A stretch of 64,000 nt of DNA from Candidatus Ratteibacteria bacterium (GTDB lineage Bacteria; Ratteibacteria; UBA8468; B48-G9; DTJG01). The DNA is taken from the NCBI GenBank assembly GCA_041656495.1, contig JBBADJ010000001.1, positions 79,382 through 143,381 of the forward strand, given 5' to 3'. Position numbers and translations under genes: made by a program. Under the pieces are notes generated by a model. It was not told the DNA's origin. It was given only the letters and a program-made list of their open reading frames with translations, and searched no databases. The stretch's first letter is position 1. Each line of letters starts with the position of its first letter. This document shows, one piece after another, positions 59,992-63,536 of this stretch.

Positions 59992-60596
59992 ATATATTAC
60001 GAAAAAAAGGGGCAATATCAAGAAGGAACCGTATCATTCACCTAAGAGAACAGGATATTTCCAACCTAAAAGCAATGGGGATCCGATTTCGGAGAGCTGA
60101 AAAAGAACGTCTCCGTTTAAACAAAGAACTTACAGAATGGCAAGAACGCGCAAAACGCCTTGCCGCAGAACTAGATAATTTTCGGAAACGAGCAGAAAAA
60201 GAGAAGATGGAAACTCGTCAATATGCCATTGCCTCAACCGTACAGCATCTTCTTGGCTTTGATGAACTCTTTTCAAAAGCGCTCTCTGGACTCACTGGAT
60301 CCGATAAGAACAACCATACTATTATGGTCGGAATCAAAATGATCGGGAAGGAGTTTGACAATCTTCTCTCTTCACTCGGTATTGCAAAAATTCCCACTGT
60401 AGGCGAGACATTTAATCCCTCCCTCCATGAAGCGATAGATATAGAAGAAAGCAGTGAATACAAGCCTAACACTATCCTCAAAGAGCTTCGGCCCGGATAT
60501 ACATTAGAAGGGAAACTCCTTAGAGCCGCACAGGTAAAGATCGCAAAAGAAGCAAAAACATCCCTTCACAAGCCTCACCCCCCTTCAGATGTATGA
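59988..60596 (+). CDS. grpE: Nucleotide exchange factor GrpE
   Basis: Coiled-coil N-terminus, FNPSLHEAI and a C-terminal beta-domain; ATGA overlap with lepB. Confidence 0.8.
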   Translation: MNILRKKGAISRRNRIIHLREQDISNLKAMGIRFRRAEKERLRLNKELTEWQERAKRLAAELDNFRKRAEKEKMETRQYAIASTVQHLLGFDELFSKALSGLTGSDKNNHTIMVGIKMIGKEFDNLLSSLGIAKIPTVGETFNPSLHEAIDIEESSEYKPNTILKELRPGYTLEGKLLRAAQVKIAKEAKTSLHKPHPPSDV

Positions 60597-61495
60597 GCGC
60601 CATACTCCTCTCTTCTCCGGCAAAAATTAATCTCTTCCTTGAAATTACCGGTAGACGTTCCGATGGTTACCATACACTCTGTTCTTTGGTAGATCTTATC
60701 TCTCTCCATGATACAATTAAGCTAACTCCCGCCTCTCAATTTACGGTTTCCTTTGAAAGCCCATGGAGAATCCCCTCTGAGAATAGTGTTACAAAAACAG
60801 TTCGCCTTATTGAATCCCTTGCATCTTCAAAAGCATCTCTTCCCCGATACGCTCTTCGCATCACGAAAAGAATTCCTCCTGGAAGTGGTATGGGAGGAGG
60901 AAGCAGTAATGCGGCATCTATCTTAAAATTTTTCAATACCCATTGGAACCTCGGCCTTGATAAAAAGAGCCTGTTTCAAAGAGGCACCACTATTGGCGCC
61001 GATGTTCCTCTCTTTTTGCATGGCAGACAATCTATCATAACAGGAATCGGAGAGACCATTCATCCCTTACCCGCCCCCTTTCATCTTTCTTATCTTATTT
61101 TTGTTCCAGCCTTTGAAGTTTCTACAAAAAAAGTCTATGAGACTCTTTCTCTCAAAAATTATGTAAATTTGACAACAGCCCGCGAGAACATTACAATTTT
61201 ATTGAATTTTTTATGGAAAAACAAAATCACAGAAGCGCAGTGCCGTATGTTCAACAGACTTGAGGAGCCAAGTATGCGCGTAAGAAAGGAACTTGCGGCT
61301 ACTCGCACTATGCTCCAACAAACCTTTCATTCTCCCTTTTTTCTTACTGGAACAGGAGGCGCACTTTTTTCTATATTTCCTAATGACTATGTTCTGCCCG
61401 CAAGCCATCCTAAGGAAGTAATGTCATGGCAAAGATATGCTGCATCCAGCGAACCTTGCACCATAGACAAGGAGGAATTCAATGGAAATAACTGA
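60593..61495 (+). CDS. ispE: 4-diphosphocytidyl-2-C-methyl-D-erythritol kinase
   Basis: PAKINLFLEITGRRSDGYH N-terminus; GHMP kinase motif PPGSGMGGGSSNAA. Confidence 0.85.
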   Translation: MSAILLSSPAKINLFLEITGRRSDGYHTLCSLVDLISLHDTIKLTPASQFTVSFESPWRIPSENSVTKTVRLIESLASSKASLPRYALRITKRIPPGSGMGGGSSNAASILKFFNTHWNLGLDKKSLFQRGTTIGADVPLFLHGRQSIITGIGETIHPLPAPFHLSYLIFVPAFEVSTKKVYETLSLKNYVNLTTARENITILLNFLWKNKITEAQCRMFNRLEEPSMRVRKELAATRTMLQQTFHSPFFLTGTGGALFSIFPNDYVLPASHPKEVMSWQRYAASSEPCTIDKEEFNGNN

Positions 61496-61919
61496 AACGC
61501 GGATATCTCTGATCCACAAAGCAGACAGTCGCCTCCGGGCTTATGCATCGGTTACATTTGATCATTCTTTCGTCGTCAGAGAAATACGGATCATTGAAGG
61601 GAAAAACGGCCTTTTTGTTGCCATGCCAAGCAGAAAAACACAAAAATCTTGTATAAAATGTGGTTTTAAAAACTCTGTCAGCAATAAATTTTGCGGCAAC
61701 TGCGCAACATCAATCTCTCCTACAAAAGGAGTAAAACTTCTTGCTTCTCAGCAACATAAAGATATTGCGCATCCAATCAATACAGAATTTAGAGAGTATC
61801 TTCAGAATAAAATTTTAATAGAGTATGAAGAGCAAAAAACAACCGCACCTGTAACAACTCCCGAAGAAAGAGAAAAAACAGAAGGAATAGAAGAAATAGA
61901 AGAACAGCCCATAGAGTAG
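61482..61919 (+). CDS. spoVG: SpoVG-family nucleic-acid-binding protein containing an inserted C4 zinc-ribbon
   Basis: MEITETRISLI ... AYASVTFDHSFVVREIRIIEGKNGLFVAMPSRKT ... DIAHPIN matches the SpoVG core. A CIKCGF-x9-CGNC segment is inserted where canonical SpoVG has PDGEFR. Confidence 0.8.
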   Translation: MEITETRISLIHKADSRLRAYASVTFDHSFVVREIRIIEGKNGLFVAMPSRKTQKSCIKCGFKNSVSNKFCGNCATSISPTKGVKLLASQQHKDIAHPINTEFREYLQNKILIEYEEQKTTAPVTTPEEREKTEGIEEIEEQPIE

Positions 61920-61940
61920 GGGGCTGATTCTAAAACAGGA

Positions 61941-62011
61941 TGCCCGGTGGTGTAATGGTAACACACCGGTCTTTGGAGCCGTGGTTCGAGGTTCGAATCC
62001 TCGCCGGGCAG
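61941..62011 (+). tRNA. tRNA-Gln (anticodon UUG)
   Basis: Manual fold: acceptor TGCCCGG/CCGGGCA with U1-A72 as in bacterial tRNA-Gln; D-arm GTGT/ACAC; anticodon loop CTTTGGA (U33, anticodon TTG, G37); T-arm CGAGG-TTCGAAT-CCTCG; discriminator G; CCA not encoded. Confidence 0.8.
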
Positions 62012-62760
62012 CATATATATATATATTACTTCTTCTGAGAGAGGATTCGAAAGGAGCGAAGTGGAAAGATTGCGAGTGAGCGCAGCAATCTTCGCGAATG
62101 GCCGACCCCGAACGTTCCGAAAGTGAGGGGCGCCGATCCTCGCCGGGCAGCATATATATATATATATTACTTCTTCTGAGAGAGGATTCGAAAGGAGCGA
62201 AGTGGAAAGATTGCGAGTGAGCGCAGCAATCTTCGCGAATGGCCGACCCCGAACGTTCCGAAAGTGAGGGGCAGCTGATCCTCGCCGGGCAGCATATATA
62301 TATATATATTACTTCTTCTGAGAGAGGATTCGAAAGGAGCGAAGTGGAAAGATTGCGAGCGAGCGCAGCAATCTTCGCGAATGGCCGACCCCGAACGTTC
62401 CGAAAGTGAGGGGCGCCGATCCTCGCGGAGCAGCATATATATATATATATTACTTCTTCTGAGAGAGGATTCGAAGAGAACGAAGTCAGGCAATCCGACG
62501 AAGAGGCAGGATTGCCAGCGAGTGGCCGACCTGAGCCGTATCGAAAACCGAGGCTTGTTTGTAACTTACATACCACACCCGGTATAACTTGAGCCGAGGT
62601 GGTGCGTCATACCAAACTTAACATGACGGTGAAGCACCAGGCAAGGCGCCGCACCTACGACCACTCTTCTTTGGAATTCCTTTGGAAGAGGATGTGCGTA
62701 ACGTATTTCAGCCGCACAATCCTCGCGGAGCAGCATATATATATTACTTTTCCTCACCAC
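61997..62760 (+). repeat. Tandem array of 139-142-bp direct repeats, each beginning with the 17-nt 3' end of tRNA-Gln (ATCCTCGCCGGGCAGCA) followed by a variable (AT)5-8 tract. Four tandem copies and one distal copy
   Basis: 17-mer copies at 61997, 62136, 62278, 62419 (variant CGCGGAGCAG) and 62719. The unit body is near-identical and contains the palindromes TTCGAA, TTCGCGAA and GAACGTTC. Confidence 0.85.
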
Positions 62761-62783
62761 CAACCTTATATAGGCAGAGAAAA

Positions 62784-63536
62784 ATGAACGAACCCTTAGG
62801 AATAGTAATACTTGCGGCAGGAAAAGGAAAACGGCTTGGAGGACAAAAACAAAAAACCATCCAAAAACTTCAGAATAAAAGCCTCCTTCACTATCTCTTT
62901 GACACCATTCTACAGCTTCATCCTGAAAAAATCGTGGTCGTTGTTGGCCACAAAAAAGAGGATGTAATAGAAGAACTAAAAGGGTTTCCCGTTATCTTCG
63001 TAGAACAGACAGAACTTGCGGGAACCGGAAATGCGGTTCTTATAACTCGCCTCGCATTTGAGAACTTTTCAGGAACCATTCTTGTCATGTGCGGAGATAC
63101 TCCATTTCTTTCCACTGAAACATTGCGAAACCTTCGCACAACCCATATCAATAGCAATGCATCCTGCACTATTCTTACCGCCAAAGTAGAAGAACCAAAA
63201 GGATATGGGAGAATAGCACGAAACGATTTAGGCGGCATTGTCCGTATCGTAGAAGAATTGAATGCCACTGAAAAAGAAAGGGAAATTAATGAGATCAATA
63301 CAGGAGTGTACCTCTTTAAGGCTCAAGATCTCTTCTTCTTCCTTCCCCAAATAGAGCGCAATCCACTCAAACAAGAATATTATCTTACTGATATTGTGGA
63401 ACTTATGAGCAATGCGGGAAAGACCATCACAACCTGCATCACATCTTCTCCGGAAGAAACTCTTGGCATTAATACCTTGGAAGATTTACAGAAAGCAGAA
63501 ACGTACCTTCGCAAAAAAAAGGCGGTGAACCCATGA
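62784..63536 (+). CDS. glmU: Sugar-1-phosphate nucleotidyltransferase corresponding to the GlmU N-terminal (uridyltransferase) domain only; the LbH acetyltransferase domain is absent
   Basis: [13 protein letters not shown] nucleotide-binding motif, about 250 aa, ending before any hexapeptide-repeat region; ATGA overlap with prs. Confidence 0.7.

Follow-up and report, generated by a model that had tools for sequence, protein, structure and literature searches.

The spoVG gene of a Candidatus Ratteibacteria bacterium (61482..61919, + strand) encodes what is near-certainly a SpoVG protein whose conserved fold is interrupted by a 36-residue insert containing four invariant cysteines. The gene lies in a 64,000-nucleotide stretch of contig JBBADJ010000001.1 (assembly GCA_041656495.1), the whole of which we refer to as the window. 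SpoVG is a small, widespread DNA/RNA-binding regulator. Our best explanation, held as a whole with moderate confidence, is that the gene encodes an orthologous SpoVG in which a ribbon built around a structural zinc ion enlarges the nucleic-acid-binding surface.

The window encodes a SpoVG protein with a 36-residue insert

The spoVG open reading frame (ORF), as given in the ORF list, is uninterrupted, begins with ATG and specifies 145 amino acids followed by a stop, in agreement with the translation in an earlier note on this DNA. The product matches Pfam SpoVG (PF04026) over residues 1-117 and across all 82 model positions (E=3.5e-29; 101.2 bits against a cut-off of 29.6). It is also 100% identical to a protein named 'SpoVG family protein [Candidatus Ratteibacteria bacterium]' (P0275 = MFA5644858.1/MFA7516617.1), the sequence of which occurs on 4 contigs. 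The NCBIfam equivalog NF009749, 'septation regulator SpoVG', scored just below its cut-off (105.3 versus 108 bits); because the insert splits this match in two, the narrow miss does not argue against membership of the SpoVG family.

A phmmer comparison with structures in the PDB placed the insert precisely: residues 1-54 of the window protein pair with residues 4-56 of B. subtilis SpoVG (2ia9), and residues 91-121 with residues 59-89; the S. epidermidis structures 2i9z and 2i9x gave the same split alignment. The first block is the N-terminal beta-sheet core (residues 1-54; 61482..61643, + strand), with strands at 3-10, 18-26, 30-40, 43-47 and 50-56 in the AlphaFold2 (AF2) model described below; it contains the doublet R51-K52, the equivalent of K50-R51 in S. 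aureus SpoVG. The second block is the C-terminal core (residues 91-121; 61752..61844, + strand), in which a strand and loop, QHKDIAHPIN, are followed by a helix at residues 101-121 of the model. The earlier note had taken DIAHPIN for a helix; the model instead assigns it to the strand and loop ahead of that helix. The D94-I-A-H-P-I99 motif is present, and D94, A96, H97, P98, I99 and R104 are invariant in an 84-sequence alignment of homologs (A1). The gap between the two blocks corresponds to the lineage-specific insert, residues 55-90 (61644..61751, + strand), which puts 36 residues where B. subtilis SpoVG has 2, for a net gain of +34 at the two-residue hairpin tip of the solved SpoVG structures. 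An insert had been recognized here before, but the string quoted for it was 38 residues long rather than the true 36. Finally, residues 122-145 (61845..61916, + strand) form an acidic C-terminal tail that, at a predicted local confidence (pLDDT) of about 50, is probably disordered in the model; the acidic sequence itself, EEREKTEGIEEIEEQPIE, spans residues 128-145, and its presence bears out the earlier description.

The window protein therefore resembles canonical SpoVG (PF04026; 2IA9, 2I9Z/2I9X) in fold, in core motifs (AMPSRK, DIAHPI and the C-terminal helix), and in its basic doublet, its acidic tail and its slot downstream of ispE. It differs in the hairpin tip, which has 2 residues in canonical SpoVG and 36, with a Cys4 ribbon, here.

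We considered whether the Cys-rich segment could be an assembly or frameshift artifact, or a recent mobile insertion, and regard the chance of either as negligible. The first is ruled out by the intact ORF, by the identical protein on several independent contigs and by hundreds of homologs that carry the insert in frame. As for a mobile or foreign origin, the GC content of the insert (35%) is close to the 34% found for the C-terminal part (the N-terminal part has 44%), so that there is no compositional anomaly, and a reading of the gene sequence turned up no flanking repeats, with repeat-finding having covered 61900-62750.

The insert combines a conserved Cys4 ribbon with a variable linker

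The whole protein has four cysteines, C57, C60, C71 and C74, spaced C-x2-C-x10-C-x2-C and not, as previously stated, CxxC-x9-CxxC. We found them at the same places in all 120 of the best 90%-identity clusters from a collection of 5.8 billion proteins, and they are invariant in 84/84 aligned homologs (A1) and in 266 motif-bearing sequences. The invariance in the latter two sets excludes a chance origin of the motif. A homolog alignment had been suggested earlier as the test of whether the Cys segment was artifactual or its cysteines unconserved; the ORF has no frameshift, and the cysteines are invariant in the homologs.

Such invariance could be read as the mark of a redox or zinc-availability switch, in which oxidation of the thiolates or loss of zinc unfolds the ribbon, alters SpoVG activity and ties regulation to stress. 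Zn(Cys)4 sites do react with oxidants, and ribosomal proteins that exist in zinc and non-zinc forms offer an analogy. However, invariant cysteines are equally expected of a purely structural zinc site, nothing specific points to a switch, and many of the host lineages are anaerobes of sediment or groundwater. We consider a switch quite improbable.

The cysteines belong to a candidate zinc-ribbon module, residues 57-78 (61650..61715, + strand), which is marked out by the invariant Cys, weak Pfam matches, AF2 confidence and Foldseek. Its consensus over the 266 sequences is C-P-[KR]-C-G-x-K-N-x-[LIV]-x-x-[KR]-[FY]-C-x-x-C-G-x-x-L. Position 63 is K/R in 92% (K63 here), N64 is kept in 94%, position 69 is K/R in 82%, and position 70 is F/Y in 96%. 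The ribbon is basic, with K/R at 59, 63, 67 and 69 and a mean net charge of +2.8 ± 1.05 over the same sequences. In contrast to this conserved module, the linker that leads from it back to the SpoVG core (residues 79-90; 61716..61751, + strand) is distinguished by length variation and low pLDDT: from the fourth Cys to the His before D-I-A-H-P there are 14-33 residues, unconserved, bland in composition and about neutral in charge.

These two halves bear differently on the idea that the insert is no more than structural decoration, tolerated since it became fixed a single time in an ancestor, and that it marks lineages while serving no distinct function beyond stable folding. The linker half is indeed unconserved and variable in length, the core motifs of SpoVG are unaltered, and what is almost certainly the same insert was published purely as a conserved signature indel (PMC3444138, discussed below). 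Against this, K63, N64, F/Y70, G75 and L78 are kept at 76-96% across phylum-level divergence, which suggests selection beyond mere tolerance. Decoration alone seems to us an improbable account.

The ribbon has several known counterparts. It shares the spacing C-x2-C-x3-N-x6-C-x2-C, including the Asn, with the bacterial DZR/zinc_ribbon_2 ribbons (PF12773, PF13240, PF13248), and this spacing is also the RanBP2-type consensus. Precomputed Pfam annotation of DZR/zinc-ribbon type (PF12773/PF13240) already exists for many homologs. The predicted fold superposes on solved RanBP2/NZF zinc fingers. In contrast to DZR ribbons and RanBP2 fingers, however, the window ribbon lies inside another domain rather than forming a terminal module, and it is more basic; the RanBP2 consensus furthermore has a Trp before the first Cys, which the window ribbon lacks. 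By analogy, the C+/C- forms of ribosomal proteins S4, S14, L31 and L36 likewise represent one nucleic-acid-binding ortholog with or without a Cys4 ribbon; the SpoVG ribbon differs from these in being a discrete insertion, and in that no paralogous pair of the two forms was seen in the material examined (there is one copy in the 64-kb window).

The predicted structure places the ribbon at the tip of a hairpin

We predicted the structure of the window protein with AlphaFold2 from alignment A1 (mean pLDDT 76.9). Confidence was about 85-88 for core residues 1-50 and about 86-87 for residues 51-80, which include the ribbon; it fell to 56-61 for residues 81-100 (linker and return strand) and to about 50-67 for tail residues 121-145. 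Searched with Foldseek, the model matched the SpoVG structures 2i9z, 2ia9 and 2i9x with E values of 1e-6 to 1e-5 and target-normalized TM scores of 0.67-0.79. These alignments extend over 117-121 columns, more than the 84-99 residues of the targets, which indicates that the insert is looped out of the SpoVG fold.

The ribbon alone gave local matches to zinc-bound RanBP2/NZF fingers (24-28 residues, root-mean-square deviation 0.6-1.0 Å, probability about 0.95). It also superposed on small chains from structures of archaeal ribosomes, which are presumably ribosomal proteins of the zinc-ribbon type. The four cysteines appear to be modeled in zinc-knuckle geometry, to judge indirectly from these superpositions. 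An AlphaFold check of the Cys ribbon had been suggested earlier, and its outcome, a pLDDT of about 86-87 together with a zinc-finger-like local superposition, is consistent with a ribbon. DSSP assigned strands at 50-56 and 92-94 of the model, and on this basis the ribbon and linker would form the tip of a hairpin that is short in canonical SpoVG. The split phmmer alignment, A1, the AF2 model and Foldseek thus agree in predicting what the earlier note had proposed, an insert of the Cys4 zinc-ribbon type in the loop that adjoins the nucleic-acid-binding residues.

A possible role for the ribbon in nucleic-acid contact

Two determinants of DNA binding have been mapped in canonical SpoVG. K50 and R51 of the S. 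aureus protein, which correspond to R53/R54 in Borrelia, are indispensable for DNA binding, and DNA sequence specificity is determined by six residues of the helix, S66-E71 (Jutras et al. 2013, PMC3688583). In the window protein these correspond to R51-K52 and approximately to N100-E105; between the two lies the insert, with C57 five residues after K52.

From this arrangement we propose the following mechanism. The four cysteines would bind one structural Zn(II), as we infer from their predicted geometry, and the metal would fold the ribbon into a rigid, basic knob near R51-K52. While the doublet would contact the phosphate backbone, the knob would enlarge the nucleic-acid-binding surface by adding backbone or single-strand contacts; compared with canonical SpoVG, these could shift the affinity or the preferred substrate. 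We propose this contact role because the ribbon is basic and conserved and is predicted to sit at the tip of the very hairpin that carries the Arg/Lys doublet. The role itself we advance tentatively, as close to an even chance.

Several observations weigh against this proposal. The Pfam zinc-ribbon matches at residues 57-79 are below threshold (DZR 20.7 versus 27.3; Zn_Ribbon_1 18.3 versus 25). Position 75 is Gly in 96% of homologs and Ala in the window protein. The linker is weakly conserved and modeled with low confidence, so that the ribbon may not stay against the DNA/RNA site. In the literature searched, we found no experiment on any insert-bearing SpoVG. Lastly, the nearest structural matches of the ribbon, the NZF and RanBP2 fingers, are mostly protein binders, with ubiquitin and Ran as their partners.

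This last point leads to a different possibility, that the ribbon is a protein-protein interaction or oligomerization module, which stabilizes a multimer or recruits a partner and makes no contact with nucleic acid. In its favor, the best local matches of the ribbon are to fingers that bind ubiquitin (NZF) or Ran (RanBP2), and the small ribbons of DZR type serve generically as adaptors. Oligomer contacts do matter in this family, as the S. aureus protein was found in solution as a complex of 55-60 kDa (Jutras et al., PMC3688583). On the other hand, the conserved surface of the ribbon is mainly basic (K/R at 59, 63, 67 and 69; +2.8), a better fit to polyanion binding, and we saw no conserved neighbor gene specific to insert-bearing loci, the synteny of which is as in canonical loci. 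An interaction module is in our judgment unlikely, although less so than a decoration or a switch.

RanBP2-type fingers such as ZRANB2 bind single-stranded RNA motifs. A more far-reaching form of the contact proposal would make the ribbon a second, zinc-dependent nucleic-acid-recognition element in the SpoVG proteins of Planctomycetota, Omnitrophota, Ratteibacteria and allied phyla, with different targets (single-stranded RNA motifs, for example) or with a response to zinc or redox state, and would make the insert a synapomorphy that ties Ratteibacteria, Desantisbacteria and Auribacterota to the PVC radiation. We regard this extended form as doubtful.

Canonical SpoVG has been characterized in B. 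burgdorferi, S. aureus and L. monocytogenes, and SpoVG biochemistry to date has all been done on insert-free proteins from Firmicutes and Borrelia. What holds in these model species may not carry over to Planctomycetota and the phyla related to them. As a natural variant whose predicted rigid, basic zinc knob falls between the two mapped binding determinants, the insert-bearing protein offers a probe of how SpoVG engages nucleic acid.

The insert is widespread and extends beyond Planctomycetes

Among 1.84 billion representatives of clusters at 50% identity, a full HMMER scan detected 4255 SpoVG relatives; of the best 150 of these, at least 149 carry the motif at position ~57. The insert is also present in 49 of the 80 GTDB species loci retrieved, under the labels Omnitrophota, Ratteibacteria, Desantisbacteria, Auribacterota, TA06, uncultured Planctomycetia and 'Vermiphilus sp.'. 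Insert-free, canonical genes were found in Spirochaetes, Elusimicrobia, WOR-3, Bacillota, Izemoplasmatales and two Omnitrophota-labeled metagenome-assembled genomes (MAGs). Together, these results show that SpoVG normally has the ribbon insert in Planctomycetota and the uncultured phyla allied with them, and that the insert is not rare. The description of the insert as an unusual variant does not survive these counts, nor the fact that the indel was published in 2012.

In that publication, Gupta, Bhandari and Naushad (2012, Front Microbiol 3:327, PMC3444138) described an insert of 36 amino acids (32-36 in the legend to Figure A3), located where SpoVG is conserved, as a conserved signature indel exclusive to Planctomycetes; their text mentions neither zinc nor cysteine. 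The window insert is like this indel in size and in lying in a conserved region. The two are almost certainly the same insert, since Planctomycetota-labeled homologs (P0222, P0169 and P0153) have CxxC-x10-CxxC at position ~57, as in the window protein. The claimed exclusivity, by contrast, is contradicted by the insert of the window's Ratteibacteria gene and by those of Omnitrophota-, Desantisbacteria-, Auribacterota- and TA06-labeled MAGs; this leaves the homology of the insert unaffected.

The architecture is thus already catalogued, through Pfam annotation, and the indel already published; the window protein is the Ratteibacteria member of a known insert-bearing subfamily, and an ordinary one. 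Full-text searches of the literature that paired SpoVG with zinc ribbons, zinc fingers, the CXXC motif or Omnitrophica returned nothing relevant. Within that literature, the explicit zinc-ribbon reading and its place relative to the mapped binding residues appear to be unreported, as does the occurrence of the insert outside Planctomycetes. The latter corrects a published phylogenetic marker and yields a shared character, of a rare kind, that can help to place several candidate phyla.

A single origin of the insert is favored by its identical site and by the conservation of the ribbon sequence, and we put it forward on these features. In a neighbor-joining tree of 81 core columns, which hold little signal, 34 of the 48 insert-bearing sequences fell into one pure clade, and full monophyly was recovered in 3.5% of 200 bootstraps.

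Several members of the family have further features of their own. Many of the best 150 relatives are 200-470 amino acids long, with low-complexity tails rich in E/P/R/G/A/D, and those with names are Planctomycetota. The C-terminal tails of Planctomycetota ribbon-SpoVG proteins (among P0122-P0267) reach about 350 amino acids, compared with the 24-residue acidic tail of the window protein, and may signal an additional function of disordered regions. A protein from outside the window, P0121 (388 amino acids), gives about 8 separate matches to the N-terminal half of SpoVG, without the CxxC motif, and appears to be a tandem-repeat SpoVG protein. Two MAG loci labeled 'Vermiphilus sp.', a Dependentiae genus (L001 and L007), encode a ribbon-SpoVG 70% identical to that of the window and share the full GT-lepB-grpE-ispE-spoVG synteny with Ratteibacteria/Omnitrophota-type loci; this identity and synteny suggest that the label is a taxonomic mislabel.

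The ribbon-bearing gene occupies the ancestral spoVG slot

The gene order in the window is tsaB-like, glycosyltransferase, lepB, grpE, ispE, spoVG, tRNA-Gln(UUG) and a glmU-like nucleoside triphosphate (NTP) transferase. The order ispE-spoVG-tRNA-Gln-NTP transferase is shared by the window and most of the 80 loci, and recurs in insert-bearing loci. In most related loci, ispE lies directly 5' of spoVG, whether or not the insert is present, and tRNA-Gln is at the same position in 21 of the 26 related loci scanned. The order ispE-spoVG(-tRNA-Gln) likewise recurs in insert-free loci, as in Treponema (L049) and Elusimicrobia (L053). A tblastn search of the protein against the window matched only the gene itself, revealing no second SpoVG there. 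Because the synteny is common to insert-bearing and canonical loci, and because the window has a single SpoVG, we conclude that the ribbon-bearing gene is an ortholog in the ancestral slot. An extra paralog or neofunctionalized copy is rejected for the window by the same tblastn result and canonical-like synteny.

Immediately upstream, ispE (60593..61495, + strand) encodes a GHMP kinase with Pfam GHMP_kinases_N, and its 3' end shares 14 nt with the 5' end of spoVG. A Shine-Dalgarno-like AAGGAGG (61469..61475, + strand), read from the sequence, lies 6 nt 5' of the spoVG ATG. Downstream, tRNA-Gln(UUG) occupies 61941..62012 (+ strand), as detected by ARAGORN and by Rfam (tRNA, 62.1 bits).

The region 61997-62531 consists of about 3.5-4 tandem copies of a unit with a period of 141 nt (96% matches), and a degenerate copy lies at 62719-62748. 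This array starts inside the 3' end of tRNA-Gln(UUG), and each of its units ends in a copy of the last 17 nt of the tRNA (ATCCTCGCCGGGCAGCA) followed by (TA)n. It looks like a tRNA 3' end duplicated repeatedly in att-like fashion, or like an intergenic unit amplified by slippage. The repeats matched no Rfam family, are absent from the 80 related loci, and showed no unusual RNA stability (z = 0.43).

The glmU-like NTP-transferase ORF (62682-63536) encodes a protein of 284 amino acids that consists of the nucleotidyltransferase domain alone, without the acetyltransferase half. Its listed start is a TTG at 62682, and some 34 codons at its beginning share sequence with the degenerate final copy of the repeat; an ATG about 100 nt downstream of that TTG is probably the real start.

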